Assembly: GCA_963768175.1 (NCBI GenBank)
Contig: CAVYGQ010000001.1
Coordinates: 100,481 to 164,480 of the forward strand
Direction: 5' to 3'
DNA: 64,000 bases
From: Candidatus Doudnabacteria bacterium
GTDB lineage: Bacteria; Patescibacteriota; Doudnabacteria; UBA920
The notes below the pieces were generated by a model. The model worked only from the letters and a program-made list of their open reading frames with translations. It did not search any database and was not told where the DNA came from. Both the position numbers and the translations under genes were made by a program. This document shows, in pieces, positions 21,086 to 39,149 of this stretch (its first letter is position 1; each line of letters begins with the position of its first letter).

Positions 21086-21706
21086 TTATGCGAACTGTTG
21101 CAACTGTCCTAAAATGGCCTGTTCCAGCTGAACAGTATCATAATGGCGTTGAGGCTTGATGTGTAAAATATTTAACTCTGAGGCTCTCAAAGCCCCGTCT
21201 AAAAAATCATCTCTTAATTTTCTATTGAAATAATTATGGGTATAATCATCCAGTTCAATAACCAAAAGTGGCGACAAATAAACTTTGTCAAAGATTACAA
21301 AATCTACTGTCTTTTTGTTTATCCTGTTAAAGTTGCTGTAAGTGGAATTTGTGCCGTATCTTTCCAGTCCGCCTTGGACTTCAATGATTCGGGATAAGGC
21401 AACCTGTGGCATAATAAAATACCTGTCCTTGATTATTTCCTGTAGCACTCCGAAAAACTTGTATTCGGTTTGGGTCATCAGGTATCGCTTTTTTCTGAAT
21501 GGATAAATTTTATCGTCTTTTTTTACTTCCTGAATTTTTGTATTGCCAGCATTACTAGGCGGTAAAGGTATCTCGGAATAATTTTGCTTTGAGCTTTTTA
21601 TGATGTAACTGGCAAGAATGATTATGATTATTAAACCAAATAAAAAATCCATAAATTTGCTTTTAGAAACACAAAGCCCCGGTCCAGCCGGGCTTTTACA
21701 CCCCAT
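21086..21706 (-). CDS. DUF2726-domain protein (NERD/restriction-endonuclease-like fold), membrane-anchored
   Basis: An N-terminal TM helix precedes the DUF2726 signature (TVDFVIFDKVYLSPLLVIELDDYTH ... RDDFLDGAL...LNILHIK). Confidence 0.55.
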   Translation of the reverse strand: MGCKSPAGPGLCVSKSKFMDFLFGLIIIIILASYIIKSSKQNYSEIPLPPSNAGNTKIQEVKKDDKIYPFRKKRYLMTQTEYKFFGVLQEIIKDRYFIMPQVALSRIIEVQGGLERYGTNSTYSNFNRINKKTVDFVIFDKVYLSPLLVIELDDYTHNYFNRKLRDDFLDGALRASELNILHIKPQRHYDTVQLEQAILGQLQQFA

Positions 21707-22000
21707 ACCCCTTTCGGGATATGACCATAAGACAGTAGCTGAACGCGGGGTTCAGTATGTCTTATGGTTTTACAGCCGTGCCTGATTAAAGGTTTAGGCC
21801 ATTCAGTTGTGATTAAATTATACCAAACTTGACAACAATTTTAAAGGGGTGTATGGTGGAGTTAGTTCATTAAAAAGTTAATAATTAAACGTAAGTTTTA
21901 TTTCTCCTCCCTCGGAGTAAGACAGGGGCTATGCCGTTTTGAACACAAAAACGGTGTGGCGTTTTGACCGCTTGTCTCAGCCATTAGAGGCCTTACAAAA

Positions 22001-35609: not shown

Positions 35610-36227
35610 ATGGAAAAAGATATCACCCAGCGCCAAAAAGAGTTATTAAGCTTTATTACAAAACAGATTCGCGACCATGCTTTGCCTCCAAGCATATCAG
35701 AAATGGCCACTTATTTAAAAGTAAAGTCCAAGAACGGGGTTGCCAAACTTTTAAATGCGCTTGAGGCACAAGGTTATATTCGGACTAGCGGCAAGGCCCG
35801 CGGTATTGAAGTGTTAAATTCTTTGGGGGAAAGTTTGCAAAAGGGCTTGGTGGCGGTGCCGCTGCTCGGCAACATTCAGGCCGGAACCCCGCACTTGGCG
35901 GAAGAAAACATTGAGGAATGGATAAATTTGCCGCAAACCTTAATTAAAAGCCGAAGGGACGTGTTTTTGCTAAAAGTCAGGGGCGACAGCATGATAAACG
36001 CCGGAATTTTTGAAGGAGATTTGGTTATAGTCCGGCCAACCCATGACGTAAGAAATAACGACATTGTAGTGGCTCTGCTCCACGATGAAGCCACGGTCAA
36101 GCGGTTTATCCAAATAAAAAACCGGGCCTATTTGAAAGCCGAAAACCCGGACTACAAAAATATTTACCCCAAAGAAGAATGGATAGTCCAGGGCAAGGTG
36201 GTGGGGGTGATAAGAAATTTAGAGTAG
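35610..36227 (+). CDS. lexA: LexA repressor (S24 peptidase)
   Basis: An N-terminal wHTH is followed by the cleavage-site region and GDSMINAGIFEGDLVIV, with a Ser/Lys dyad. Confidence 0.92.
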   Translation: MEKDITQRQKELLSFITKQIRDHALPPSISEMATYLKVKSKNGVAKLLNALEAQGYIRTSGKARGIEVLNSLGESLQKGLVAVPLLGNIQAGTPHLAEENIEEWINLPQTLIKSRRDVFLLKVRGDSMINAGIFEGDLVIVRPTHDVRNNDIVVALLHDEATVKRFIQIKNRAYLKAENPDYKNIYPKEEWIVQGKVVGVIRNLE

Positions 36228-36263: not shown

Positions 36264-36617
36264 ATGCAAACTTATAAAGATCTTATTGTTTGGAAGAAGT
36301 CCATGGAATTGGTTGTCGTTGTTTACAAACTTACCGATTTTTATCCGGCCTCTGAACAATATGGTTTGACTTCTCAATCACGCCGATGCTCAGTTTCCAT
36401 ACCTTCAAATATAGCTGAGGGTAAACGGCGCGGGACTATTAAGGAATTCAGACATTTTTTGTTAATTTCTTATGGCTCCGGAGCCGAATTAGAAACTCAA
36501 ATTGAGATCGCAAAACGGTTATCGTGGGGGCAAAAATTAGATTTTACAAAAGTGGATAGGCTGTTAGAAGAAGTTATGAAGATTTTAAACAAAATGATTA
36601 ATAACTTACAAGGTTGA
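36264..36617 (+). CDS. Four-helix-bundle protein (TIGR02436-like, the '23S rRNA intervening sequence protein' family)
   Basis: YKLTDFYPASEQYGLTSQ.RR...SIPSNIAEG...EF..FL.IS.GS..ELETQ matches the family pattern. Confidence 0.7.
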   Translation: MQTYKDLIVWKKSMELVVVVYKLTDFYPASEQYGLTSQSRRCSVSIPSNIAEGKRRGTIKEFRHFLLISYGSGAELETQIEIAKRLSWGQKLDFTKVDRLLEEVMKILNKMINNLQG

Positions 36618-36868
36618 AGTTACGCATTGCAGGTTCCCCTACATTCTTACTAACCTACAAGCTACTTGCTAAGCTTATGTCCGAGCTCCAGAAACAAAAA
36701 TTAAATATCCTTGCCCAGTTACGCGGGCTTTGCGCGCATTGTTCCTGTGGTTCCTCCCACCCGCATCGCTGCCCGGTGCAGGAAATTTCCGCGCGTATCT
36801 CTTCCTTGCGCGGCGTACCGTTGATTGTGAACAACGAATTCAAAGGCGTGTTTTTTTCAAAAATTTAA

Positions 36869-37304
36869 AGGTTAAATAAACACCCTCAGCAGAGACGGTC
36901 TTCCGGTAAGCTGGAAGACCGCTCTGCGAGGGCGCCCTGCGCCAAGAGGGGTTAACACCGGAGGGGCTGGCGCAGGATTTTTTGGGGGGAAGAGGCCTGA
37001 GGAGGCACTACAGTTTGGCCTCAACCCCCTGCTGCCTAAGGAACTTTTGACACCTCTCCAGAGCACGAGAGAGGAGAGGGCTTAGGAGGTTACCTCCCGG
37101 AATCTAAAGTATCCGGGAATGTCCCTGGGGGCAGCGAGCTTATGATTCCGTCCTATAATGAATTTTTGAGCCGGCGGGAGCCCACAGGCGTGGGTCTCGG
37201 AGGAGAAGGATCCCCCGCCGGCTGTCCCGAAGTATGTAAATATATTATAGGATTTTCTGTAAAGAAAGCAAGACTAAAAACACCCCAAATAATTGGGGTG
37301 TTTT
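36869..37304 (+). ncRNA. GC-rich, highly structured non-coding region ending in a bidirectional terminator; candidate ncRNA of unknown class
   Basis: The region is ~55-60% GC with nested stems (cagagacggtcttccggtaagctggaagaccgctctg; gccggcggg...cccgccggc). No plausible ORF is present. The terminator caccccaaataattggggtg lies at 37281-37300 with flanking A/T runs. Confidence 0.3.
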
Positions 37305-37379
37305 TTGGTAGCGCTACAGGGAATCGGACCCTGATTTGTTGGCTGAGAACCAACCGTCCTAACCATTAGACGATAGCGC
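37305..37379 (-). tRNA. tRNA-Glu (anticodon CUC)
   Basis: The minus strand reads GGCGCUAUCGUCUAAUGGUUAGGACGGUUGGUUCUCAGCCAACAAAUCAGGGUCCGAUUCCCUGUAGCGCUACCA. It folds as a cloverleaf with anticodon loop UUCUCAG and an encoded CCA. Confidence 0.85.
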
Positions 37380-37619
37380 CATAATTGTATCAAATAATTC
37401 TTGCCTAGCTTTATAATAATGTTTAAGGTGGTATTCTCTTTTTCGTGCTTCCGTTAAGGTAGGGCATTCTTCAGTATAGACAATTTTAAAAGGTCTGTAT
37501 GGTTTGGTTGATTTGACCTTACCGTTGTTATGGTATCGCAATCTTTGTTCTTTATCTTCTGTACATCCGATGTACTTCCAATTTTGCTTTAAGCTTTGTA
37601 ATACATATATCCAAGCCAT
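37359..37619 (-). CDS. GIY-YIG nuclease superfamily protein (small, stand-alone)
   Basis: WIYVLQS...WKYIGCTEDKEQRLRYHNNG...FKIVYTEE..T.TEARKREYHLKH matches GIY-YIG motifs. The last 7 codons overlap the 5' 21 nt of tRNA-Glu. Confidence 0.7.
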   Translation of the reverse strand: MAWIYVLQSLKQNWKYIGCTEDKEQRLRYHNNGKVKSTKPYRPFKIVYTEECPTLTEARKREYHLKHYYKARQELFDTIMALSSNG

Positions 37620-37672
37620 AAAATCGATTTAATCATAGACCGTTTCCGCCGAAGGCGGACCCGCCTCCGGCG

Positions 37673-37694
37673 GGCTAACCATTAGACGATAGCG
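37673..37694 (-). repeat. Duplicate of the first 22 nt of tRNA-Glu (ggcgctatcgtctaatggttag), a direct repeat flanking the GIY-YIG gene
   Basis: It is an exact copy of 37358-37379 and lies ~290 bp upstream of the tRNA on the minus strand. It is followed by the hairpins cccgccggaggcggg and ccgccttcggcgg. Confidence 0.7.
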
Positions 37695-37928
37695 CCTCGT
37701 CGCGCTTTACTTCGCGCTTTCGTTCCGACTTCGATCGGAACTTTCGCGCTTCGTAAAGTGCTCCTCTTCCCCAAAAATCCGTGCTCGTCCCGACTAGTCG
37801 GGACTGCGCTCCTGATTTTTGGGGACCCCTTTATTAGGGGGTCTGTGATATTCTATCAAATTTTGAGAATTTAGCCAAGTGTGGCATAATTAAATAAAGC
37901 ATGTAACATAAAACATGTAGCATTTTGC

Positions 37929-39149
37929 ATGACACAAAAACAGATATTAAAATTCCCAGAAGGTTTTTTGTGGGGAGCGGCTTCAAGCGCTTATCAGACC
38001 GAAGGCAATAACACCAACACTGATTGGTGGGCATGGGAACATTCGCCCCGCCGGGAAGACCAGCTATTGGCGGAACGCAAAAACCTTATCGATTACCAAA
38101 GCGGGCTGGCTACGGATTTTTGGCATCGTTATGACGAAGACTTTGCTTTAGCACAGCAATTAAATCACAATGCCACGCGTTTTAGCGTTGAATGGTCGCG
38201 GATTGAACCAGTAGAAGGGAGGTTTGATGAACAGGTTTTGGACCATTATGAAAAAATGCTTCAGTCGGCCAAATTCCACGGTTTAAAAGTATTTTTGACC
38301 ATCCACCATTATACTTCGCCGGTTTGGTTTATGGAGCGCGGTGGTTTTACCAAACGTGGCAATTTGTTCCATTTTTTGCGCTACGCGCAAAAAGTCGCGG
38401 AGCGATTCCATGAATACGTGGATTTCTGGGTGACTATTAACGAACCCGGGCTTTACGCTGGGCAAAGCTATTGGCTCGGCGTCCATCCGCCGCAAGTTAA
38501 GAATTTCCGCCTGGCTTGGAAAGTCGCCGACAACATGATATTGGCCCACAACCAGCTTAGCCAGTTTCTCCGCACAAATTTTTCCCAACCAGTAAGCCTT
38601 GCTTTTAACCTGTGCGACTTTCAGCCGGCCGGATTTTTGGGCGGACTGGCTACGGATTTGGCCGATTACGTTGTTAACGAATATATTATCCGGCGGACAA
38701 TTGACGCCTGTGATTATATTGGCGTGAATTATTATTTTCATCACCACATCGGTATTTTTGGCATCCGCAAGCATAGCCACAGCCAGCATGACAACACCGA
38801 CCGCGGCTGGGGCATCCATCCAGACGGCATTGAACGGGTGCTTTTAGGATTAAAAAAGTTTCGCAAGCCGATTTACATTATTGAAAACGGAGTTGCGGAC
38901 GCTAAAGATGAAAAGCGGGAGCAATTTATTAAGGATCATCTGTTTTACGTATACAGCGCCATCCAAAAAGGCGCGGACGTGCGCAGTTATTTGTACTGGT
39001 CACTGACCGATAATTTTGAGTGGGAAGAAGGCTTCTGGCCCAGGTTCGGGCTTATAGAAATCGAGCGGGAAAATCTGCTTCGGCGCAAAGTGCGCTTTAG
39101 CGCCTTAAAGTATGCGGAAATATGCAAAACTAATACTTTAGAGTATTAG
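37929..39149 (+). CDS. Glycoside hydrolase family 1 beta-glucosidase
   Basis: The GH1 signatures are present: FLWGAASSAYQTEGN, the acid/base TINEP and the nucleophile I(I)ENG. Confidence 0.9.
   Translation: MTQKQILKFPEGFLWGAASSAYQTEGNNTNTDWWAWEHSPRREDQLLAERKNLIDYQSGLATDFWHRYDEDFALAQQLNHNATRFSVEWSRIEPVEGRFDEQVLDHYEKMLQSAKFHGLKVFLTIHHYTSPVWFMERGGFTKRGNLFHFLRYAQKVAERFHEYVDFWVTINEPGLYAGQSYWLGVHPPQVKNFRLAWKVADNMILAHNQLSQFLRTNFSQPVSLAFNLCDFQPAGFLGGLATDLADYVVNEYIIRRTIDACDYIGVNYYFHHHIGIFGIRKHSHSQHDNTDRGWGIHPDGIERVLLGLKKFRKPIYIIENGVADAKDEKREQFIKDHLFYVYSAIQKGADVRSYLYWSLTDNFEWEEGFWPRFGLIEIERENLLRRKVRFSALKYAEICKTNTLEY

Follow-up and report, generated by a model that had tools for sequence, protein, structure and literature searches.

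How can a nuclease gene occupy a tRNA gene and yet leave the tRNA intact? The question is raised by a short open reading frame (ORF) that runs into the tRNA-Glu(CUC) gene of a Candidatus Doudnabacteria genome, within a stretch of 64,000 nucleotides (contig CAVYGQ010000001.1, positions 100,481 to 164,480) that is referred to here as the window. A prediction made from the letters of the window alone (hereafter the original prediction) had read this ORF, which encodes a GIY-YIG domain, as part of a compact homing-type cassette that integrated into the tRNA gene and regenerated its 5' end. The comparisons described below establish that the cassette is an insertion and that its architecture recurs throughout a family of tRNA-resident units, and we argue that it is probably selfish.

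A nuclease gene inserted into tRNA-Glu

The 22-mer GGCGCTATCGTCTAATGGTTAG, which is the 5' end of the tRNA-Glu gene, occurs exactly twice and in direct orientation on the minus strand (37359-37380 and 37675-37696). The repeat had been predicted correctly, with coordinates that were 1-2 nt off, and none of 100 shuffles gave a match at ≤3 mismatches. The gap between the two copies is filled by the GIY-YIG ORF, which matches Pfam family PF01541 over residues 1-71 (E=1.7e-15, 57.5 bits against a cutoff of 22.6) and, as had been proposed, enters the tRNA with its last codons. The 3' end of the ORF, ATG GCG CTA TCG TCT AAT GGT TAG, corresponds to tRNA positions 1-22, and its stop codon is therefore the TAG of the D-loop. 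Together, the tRNA remnant, the hairpins and the ORF make up an insert of 316 bp.

This insert is missing from relatives that share the locus. Four of them (L205-L208) carry orthologues of the GH1 gene that adjoins the cassette (90, 87, 76 and 73% amino acid identity) on contigs with common downstream synteny. In all four a minus-strand tRNA-Glu(ctc) gene precedes GH1 by 60-215 nt, and there is no GIY-YIG match and no double hairpin. In both contigs checked (L205 and L208), the tRNA's own 5' 22-mer is single-copy, and the empty-site tRNA of the closest relative, L208, is 98.7% identical to that of the window. The promoter block is separated from the tRNA by ~45 nt in L208 and L205 as compared to ~470 nt in the window, where a leader of ~150 nt replaces the ~40-nt leader of the empty-site relatives. 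Since the tRNA-Glu sites of the four syntenic relatives, whose comparison the original prediction had suggested as a check, are empty, the cassette is an insertion, and their promoter/tRNA spacing indicates that the window gained the 316-bp block together with the ~150-nt leader. The cassette thus inserted into the tRNA-Glu gene and left an intact tRNA behind, in agreement with the proposed regeneration of the 5' end, and related cassettes are found at tRNA 5' ends in many phyla. Presence and absence at a conserved site is the behavior of a free-standing homing gene, and the label 'homing-type' is plausible for the cassette. The L208 locus also has a feature of its own that is not in the window, namely a hairpin-forming insert of ~66 nt (ccccgta...tacgggg, 143-208) between the divergent tRNA-Glu and GH1 promoters.

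The upstream repeat differs from the 22-nt target duplication that had been envisaged. Its 22 nt are followed by a 30-nt palindrome, the double-hairpin element (DHE) CCCGCCGGAGGCGGGTCCGCCTTCGGCGGA, whose halves are CCCGCCGGAGGCGGG and TCCGCCTTCGGCGGA (37674-37645) and which can alternatively be viewed as an inverted repeat of 12 bp with a 4-nt spacer. The six nucleotides after it, AACGGT, resemble tRNA positions 23-28 (GACGGT), and the upstream tRNA copy therefore probably runs on beyond the DHE; comparable tRNA relics follow the DHE in related cassettes (GACAC in L005 and L007, CATCCTG in the anticodon-loop type). We read the upstream repeat as a truncated, palindrome-ridden copy of the tRNA. 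Because the retained part varies among relatives from 11 nt to the whole tRNA, the repeat is not a fixed target-site duplication.

The promoter at 37850-37878 is the native tRNA-Glu promoter, now removed by the ~470 nt noted above from the intact tRNA. The unit is bracketed by this promoter-like site and a terminator, a geometry that suggests a single transcript from the tRNA promoter. Cleavage of such a transcript by RNase P at tRNA position 1 would strip the ORF of its last 7 codons and stop codon, and the terminated protein would then be encoded only by unprocessed transcripts. The minus strand of 37620-37880 forms far more stable folds than shuffled sequences do (z=-7.9). The hairpins that the original prediction had located at 37700-37860 do exist (gtcccgactagtcgggac spans 37787-37804, and ggggacccc..ggggtc lies near 37821-37843), but they are lineage-specific and not common to other cassettes: when the hairpin regions on either side (36850-37305 and 37697-37930) were compared by BLAST with ~1.1 Mb of related loci, no dispersed copies appeared, so they are not family-wide, and the only leader match in other cassettes is a short motif, GAGCACG.ATTTTTG..GAGGAGCA, common to the window and L006. 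The conserved hairpin pair, which lies between the remnant and the ORF (37645-37674), had been overlooked. Neither a second GIY-YIG copy nor a second DHE was found in the 64-kb window by tblastn and self-BLAST. Searches of Rfam (whole window at gathering thresholds, 36600-38000 at E≤1) returned only the tRNA for the cassette region and no intron or ribozyme; the hairpins match no known RNA.

Table 1. Features of the cassette locus, in the order of transcription.
Feature	Position	Strand	Remark
Promoter, sigma-70-like, TTGGCT-17-TAGAAT with TG	37850..37878	-	same block conserved ~45 nt upstream of uninterrupted tRNA-Glu in L205 and L208
Transcribed leader, hairpin-rich	37697..37849	-	not in empty-site relatives L205-L208; no dispersed copies in other cassettes
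Displaced tRNA-Glu 5' remnant, exact copy of positions 1-22	37675..37696	-	
Double-hairpin element (DHE) CCCGCCGGAGGCGGGTCCGCCTTCGGCGGA	37645..37674	-	single copy in window
AACGGT, probable relic of tRNA positions 23-28 (GACGGT)	37639..37644	-	assigned by resemblance
ORF 5' untranslated spacer, 19 nt	37620..37638	-	
GIY-YIG nuclease ORF, 86 aa, minimal Slx1/UPF0213 type	37359..37619	-	last 7 codons and stop are tRNA positions 1-22
tRNA-Glu(CUC), intact, regenerated gene	37306..37380	-	ARAGORN and Rfam, 58.7 bits
Intrinsic terminator 3' of tRNA, 13-bp stem then T run	37276..37305	-	

Several neighboring features deserve mention. Just 3' of the terminator lies a GC-rich, hairpin-dense and non-coding stretch of ~400 nt (36870-37275) that is far more stably folded than its shuffled versions (z=-7.9 for the minus and -5.7 for the plus strand), matches nothing in Rfam and has no copies across ~1.1 Mb of related loci; a 20-nt segment within it (36975-36994) is 80% complementary to 37761-37780 on the opposite side of the cassette. 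Between this region and LexA (35610-36227) is a gene of the 23S rRNA intervening-sequence protein family (36264-36617, plus strand; PF05635, E=1.9e-35), which also has a weak bAvd-like match, and the next ORF (36614-36868, 84 aa) has no family. Farther away, on the minus strand at 21690-21800, Rfam identifies a LOOT RNA (RF03000; 70.3 bits, gathering score 46.4). In a public short-read assembly of this organism (ERR10755942), the sequence to either side of the cassette is 100% identical to that of the window, and the contigs end at 36931 and 37760. The unassembled gap of 828 bp contains the tRNA and the cassette together with parts of the two hairpin regions; it may be repetitive or polymorphic in the population.

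The nuclease and its relatives at other tRNA genes

Apart from PF01541, the protein has one Pfam match, T5orf172, which overlaps the GIY-YIG domain; no further domain is present, and there is no sequence outside the 70-80-aa catalytic core, as the C-terminal tail is translated tRNA. Across 12 relatives, Arg26, His30 and Glu62 are invariant, Tyr5, Tyr16 and Gly18 are ≥90% conserved, and no conserved C-terminal Asn follows Glu62 in the alignment. The best solved relatives are the UPF0213 proteins 1zg2 (6.7e-15) and 1ywl (2.8e-11), while SLX1 chains score from 3e-6 to 4e-4. Judged by these closest structures and by its stand-alone domain without the C-terminal Asn, traits given for this lineage in PMC1564403, the protein is of the minimal Slx1/UPF0213 (YhbQ-like) type. 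No named NCBIfam family matches the ORF, and an exact-protein look-up found no identical protein on record. In close homologues the C-terminus reads ...MALSSNG or ...MVPSSNG, a translation of tRNA-Glu sequence. The dN/dS values in pairs of related ORFs range from 0.04 to 0.34, and the ORFs are evidently under purifying selection. A 2006 survey of the GIY-YIG superfamily described prokaryotic Slx1-like proteins as minimal stand-alone domains, considered vertically inherited and probably engaged in repair, placed homing endonucleases in another, UvrC-like lineage, and read a TrmH-GIY-YIG fusion in the Slx1 lineage as a hint of a role in RNA metabolism (PMC1564403).

By profile search, the family comprises 24,627 clusters at 50% identity (E≤1e-3). 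A scan of GTDB species representatives returned at least 592 relatives, from which 80 loci were kept; the architecture counts that follow cover 81 loci and 91 ORFs. Fifty-six of the 91 ORFs lie ≤120 nt upstream of an intact tRNA gene on the same strand, and 32 of these 56 overlap the tRNA, by 9, 14 or 21-22 nt. Another 13 ORFs are located just downstream of a same-strand tRNA, and the remaining 22 are mostly array-internal, at contig ends or beside disrupted tRNAs. The tRNAs downstream of the 56 ORFs are those for Glu (16), Ser (15), Arg (12), Gln (6), Pro (2), Ile (2), Cys (2) and Met (1). As the original prediction would have it, other GIY-YIG copies lie beside tRNA fragments: 45 of the 56 tRNA-upstream ORFs have an exact fragment of the same tRNA (≥11 nt) within 260 nt upstream. 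The retained tRNA part ends mostly at positions 11-12, 15-18, 20-22 or 34-36 and reaches the whole tRNA in L057 and L081, and inserts of 14-44 nt interrupt the upstream copies. The hosts include Patescibacteria, Bacteroidota, Ignavibacteria, Marinimicrobia and Omnitrophota. Nearest-neighbor proteins share the amino-acid type of their tRNA in 36 of 52 cases, a figure for which host taxonomy is a confounder. At the locus of the closest homologue (80% amino acid identity), the ORF enters a collapsed tRNA-Glu in which the 5' 16 nt are fused to the 3' 17 nt (L001, 300-435); 90 nt downstream there is a second T-arm-like hairpin with the acceptor 3' strand and CCA, and ARAGORN gives no intact tRNA on this 1.9-kb contig.

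Signs of mobility are seen in several genomes. Two copies in one metagenome-assembled genome (L053 and L074) are 91% identical over the 267-nt cassette only, and their flanks are unrelated. The block common to L005 and L007 is only 341 nt long (88.6% identity) and reaches from the remnant up to position 25 of the tRNA. The ORF of L007 ends in a tRNA-Glu 5' segment of foreign origin (GCCGCTATCG...), but its remnant and its intact tRNA are both host-type (GGCCCCTTCG...). In the complete genome of Cyclobacterium xiamenense, four identical 337-nt units stand in tandem upstream of tRNA-Arg(cct) (L078, 2400-3830; NZ_CP159481.1, about 249,500-250,900), each composed of tRNA positions 1-9, a 20-nt palindrome, positions 10-26, the palindrome again, positions 27-36 and the ORF. 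As a side observation, two syntenic Ignavibacteria loci whose GIY-YIG proteins are 99% identical (L063, 2828-3583, and L041, 2828-2875) differ by an insertion of ~700 bp that begins exactly at the 3' end of the tRNA-Ser after the cassette.

Palindromes with and without the nuclease

GC-rich hairpins are found ≤80 nt upstream of the start codon in 58 of 88 ORFs as compared to 31 of 327 control segments, and the hairpin-to-start-codon spacing in relatives is 6-40 nt. In Bacteroidota the insert is a perfect 20-nt palindrome, CCTGCCTGCCGGCAGGCAGG, of which 13 of the 14 copies in 367 kb lie ≤250 nt from a GIY-YIG ORF. In Patescibacteria it is a double hairpin with several sequence variants, which occurs in both orientations relative to the ORF; the hairpin type tracks the protein clade. 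The stems of the double hairpin are kept by compensatory changes: 98.6% of cells are paired, and in 8 of the 12 pairs both partners have changed (the absence of G-U pairs, which stems partly from a hairpin finder limited to Watson-Crick pairs, is not used as evidence). The DHEs of the window and L001 are identical at 29 of 30 positions, although synonymous sites are saturated (pS 0.78), and those of L005 and L007 are identical at 30 of 30 positions at pS 0.31. Conservation was judged on cassettes retrieved by their protein, since loci selected by pattern are biased by that selection. On this evidence the DHE is conserved beyond neutral expectation, and the palindrome is evidently under selection as a part of the cassette. 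A fixed spacing from the palindrome to the ORF junction was ruled out, as the post-palindrome tRNA relic spans 5 to >16 nt.

The DHE is also a dispersed element. A metagenome scan with a degenerate 30-mer returned at least 120 loci, and the matches listed, to which all counts in this paragraph refer, fall into 95 distinct contexts in which the sequence is almost invariant and is preferentially flanked by T at -2 and AA at +1/+2. Forty-three copies lie inside long ORFs, nearly always in a Gly-rich frame, where the element forms 10 codons (PAGGGSA[SF]GG or, in the other orientation, SA[EG]GGPASGG) and occupies the same site in Patescibacteria orthologues whose flanks are only 61-80% identical. 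From the flanking peptides, we take the host proteins to include GyrA (L111, L128, L143), RecR (L090, L119, L196), Obg (L114), DnaJ (L085), GAPDH (L099) and an MgsA-like ATPase; of these, the RecR assignment alone is confirmed, through the names of homologues and through Pfam domains. Among RecR homologues that are 76-100% identical, the site is empty in some cases, holds a perfect insert in others, and in others again holds one that has decayed or been partly deleted, a series that has the appearance of insertion and decay. About a third of the copies sit at the tip or exact center of long imperfect inverted repeats, (GGTTTCAG)n, and together with these they look like a larger hairpin element; repeats of this type were noted at L091, L101, L110, L115-L117, L120 and about 25 other loci. 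In 7 of the 95 contexts, the start of a GIY-YIG ORF is 6-36 nt from the DHE, and in each of these a tRNA 5' fragment flanks the DHE opposite the ORF; we estimate this proximity to the ORF to be hundreds of times above chance. Several contigs start or end inside or beside a DHE (L119, at its start, and L098, L135, L148 and L162), and the element appears to break assemblies; the RecR gene of L119 apparently has a second DHE at another site.

These data raise an alternative, overlapping with the selfish-cassette explanation, in which the mobile element would be the palindrome itself (the 30-nt double hairpin or, in Bacteroidota, CCTGCCTGCCGGCAGGCAGG) and the GIY-YIG protein its trans-acting mobilizer. 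By analogy with repetitive extragenic palindromes (REPs) and their linked transposases (RAYTs), the tRNA gene would merely be a safe harbor for the enzyme-encoding 'autonomous' copy. The wide dispersal of a near-invariant DHE, its in-frame copies, the three states of RecR and the nuclease-linked contexts would all be accounted for, and the presence of the DHE in both orientations relative to the ORF suggests a DNA-level role. The clustering of the Bacteroidota palindrome near GIY-YIG ORFs and the agreement of hairpin type with protein clade point the same way, but such linkage could simply reflect joint inheritance in the cassette. Moreover, GIY-YIG enzymes hydrolyze DNA and are not known for strand transfer, and the only DHE in the 64-kb window is the one linked to the cassette. 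We rate this account as possible but less likely. It is rather unlikely, in our estimate, that nuclease and palindromes form one two-part mobile system, in which the nuclease would act in trans on hairpin or cruciform DNA, or be guided by remnant-hairpin transcripts, and would spread 20-30-nt elements into tRNA loops and essential genes of Patescibacteria. If true, the GIY-YIG protein would be the first enzyme assigned to in-frame palindromic 'selfish DNA in protein genes', and it might also be a programmable nuclease of ~85 residues.

Weighing the explanations

We consider it probable that the cassette is a selfish, tRNA-gene-resident nuclease unit that uses the tRNA promoter for its expression, preserves the tRNA through duplication and spreads when a cut by the nuclease initiates recombinational copying via tRNA homology. 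By this account, a ~300-bp unit (double-hairpin palindrome, short spacer and 86-aa GIY-YIG gene) would have entered the 5' part of tRNA-Glu(CUC) and displaced the original 5' end (positions 1-22 and a few nucleotides) upstream, where it would be interrupted by the palindrome; as a complete tRNA follows the cassette, tRNA function is kept. The unit would be read from the native tRNA promoter to the tRNA terminator, with translation stopping at the D-loop TAG. The presumed nuclease activity would then break the tRNA gene, or a palindrome-marked copy of it, in a homing-like manner, and the break would be repaired by copying a cassette-bearing template, for which the tRNA sequence on both sides would offer homology. 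Tandem arrays could arise via re-invasion of the regenerated tRNA or unequal exchange. The palindrome is most probably a DNA structure that is bound or cut by the nuclease; alternatively, it may break up the remnant and thereby prevent both re-cutting and recombination with the intact tRNA, which would be an anti-deletion function.

Several observations weigh against the selfish-cassette explanation. The protein has 86 residues and no DNA-binding domain, and recognition of the tRNA gene is not accounted for. It belongs to the Slx1/UPF0213 lineage, which was earlier regarded as a vertical repair family and not as homing endonucleases (PMC1564403). Because the regenerated tRNA is identical to an empty target, the cassette allele is not obviously immune. 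The palindromes sit at varied positions (9/10, 12, 15, 22, 26/27, 35-39 and the T loop), and this variation, together with that in the extent of the tRNA copy, means that one fixed cleavage site does not explain the pattern. Finally, in about 90% of the sampled contexts listed, the DHE is solo and far from GIY-YIG genes, and it may therefore be an independent element.

A host-beneficial operon, in which the nuclease would have a tRNA-linked role (for example, resolving R-loops or other structures where tRNA genes are highly transcribed, or a part in RNA metabolism), the genes would be co-transcribed and the remnants would be by-products of recombination, has in its favor the purifying selection on the ORF, the width and age of the family, the constant orientation with its geometry of co-transcription, and the TrmH-GIY-YIG fusion in the Slx1 lineage (PMC1564403). 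We judge it improbable, as close relatives lack the cassette at the same locus, cassettes occupy many tRNA species, form tandem arrays and occur in several divergent copies per genome, foreign tRNA segments travel with them, and palindrome-bearing remnants are the rule.

It is more doubtful again that the protein is a guided minimal nuclease, for which the transcript (or single strand) of remnant and hairpin would serve as guide and scaffold and direct it to uninterrupted tRNA genes, much as omega RNAs do for TnpB/IscB. A conserved hairpin module does adjoin a variable, target-identical segment in nearly all cassettes, all seven GIY-linked DHE copies among the matches listed have a tRNA 5' fragment opposite, retargeting to at least eight tRNA species seems easy, and a protein of this size has no recognition domain. 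However, the hairpin module occurs in both orientations relative to the remnant and ORF, which is awkward for a fixed guide-scaffold geometry, the palindromes often cut the remnant into pieces of 9-17 nt, and 86 residues are very few for forming an R-loop. Protein clades follow the D-arm type of the tRNA (the nearest-neighbor figure given above), which fits protein-encoded specificity, and there is no precedent for a guided GIY-YIG enzyme; we therefore rate this reading as very improbable. A simple tandem duplication or an assembly artefact with a chance ORF, to which the break of the short-read assembly in this hard-to-assemble region might lend some color, can be dismissed as extremely improbable: assembly k-mers are usually longer than the exact 22-mer, the ORF matches the GIY-YIG domain significantly and retains its catalytic residues, the window differs from the empty sites in exactly the cassette plus the leader, and the same architecture recurs in >45 independent assemblies that include a complete isolate genome, which excludes an artefact.

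The selfish-cassette explanation can be set beside several known systems. Phage Seg genes, such as that for SegB in the T4 tRNA cluster (PMC2330249), are likewise stand-alone GIY-YIG genes among or next to tRNA genes, with patchy presence and a presumed spread by break repair that co-converts flanking markers. Seg proteins, however, are larger and have DNA-binding regions, homing endonucleases being classified in the UvrC-like lineage (PMC1564403), and their genes show no target-gene duplication, no tRNA overlap and no conserved palindrome, whereas the window encodes a bare 86-aa Slx1/UPF0213-type domain in a cellular chromosome. With no DNA-binding module and a different lineage, it is not a classical homing endonuclease of the I-TevI/Seg type. 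In fungal mitochondria, partial C-terminal duplications of atp6 and cob are flanked by GIY-YIG or LAGLIDADG ORFs (PMC6279837). There, too, the duplicated segment keeps the gene functional and the displaced original persists as a remnant beside the ORF; the targets, however, are protein-coding genes of organelles, altered at their 3' ends by larger enzymes, whereas the cassette resides in a bacterial tRNA gene, usually at the 5' end, with a palindrome-peppered remnant. The atp6 gene of Allomyces is a further case of an endonuclease ORF that duplicates a terminal segment of its host gene. Islands and prophages that target tRNA genes by means of a tyrosine integrase span kilobases, and it is almost always a 3' portion of the tRNA that they duplicate. 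The cassette resembles them in its insertion into a tRNA gene that is kept intact by a direct repeat of a tRNA part, but it has no integrase, measures ~300 bp and usually duplicates the 5' part to a variable extent; an integrase-type element was rejected because the 316-bp insert holds only the 86-aa GIY-YIG ORF. A transposon or miniature inverted-repeat element was also rejected, as the retained tRNA copy extends from 11 nt to the full tRNA and no terminal inverted repeats bound the unit, and so was a group I intron, as there is no Rfam intron match at E≤1, the non-ORF part is too short and the tRNA is intact and partly duplicated.

The palindromes have counterparts of their own. Mitochondrial DHEs of chytrids and fission yeasts (PMC10085805) and repetitive hairpin elements of sponges (PMC2800124) similarly consist of two adjacent GC-rich hairpins of about 30-40 nt, and occur as dispersed, near-identical copies across species, both intergenic and in rRNA or other genes, with suspected mobility. 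The adjacent GC-rich hairpins, dispersed copies and compensatory stems of the window DHE place it in this descriptive class; unlike the mitochondrial elements, it is found in Patescibacteria, is often in frame as 10 codons and is linked to a nuclease, and the likeness is descriptive and does not imply homology. Rickettsia palindromic elements (RPEs) measure about 100-150 bp and are tolerated in frame in essential proteins, and we know of no enzyme associated with them. REPs are extragenic and have a dedicated linked enzyme gene, the RAYTs being HUH tyrosine transposases. RPEs and REPs are, like the DHE, small palindromic repeats that invade genomes; the DHE differs in its length of 30 nt and in that its linked enzyme is a GIY-YIG hydrolase, and a REP/RAYT system was rejected because the linked gene is not of the HUH (Y1) type. 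Full-text literature searches, with subscription journals outside their scope, found no description of the GIY-YIG/tRNA/palindrome arrangement, and the cassette class is apparently very large and undescribed.

The selfish-cassette explanation would account for tRNA pseudo-fragments, for odd C-terminal tails (...ALSSNG) on annotated proteins and for breaks in metagenome contigs. A 30-nt palindrome that occurs in tRNA loops and in the gyrA, recR, obg and dnaJ frames of candidate phyla radiation (CPR) bacteria offers a tractable handle on how mini-elements move, and C. xiamenense, which is cultured, has a complete genome and carries a fresh four-unit array, is a ready experimental system. Tool developers, too, would have a use for a nuclease of ~85 aa if it were directed by a structure or a guide. 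The stand-alone GIY-YIG proteins of the UPF0213/YhbQ/Slx1-like type are one of the largest uncharacterized nuclease families (about 25,000 clusters at 50% identity), and at least a large branch of this family would be selfish residents of tRNA genes and not repair enzymes.

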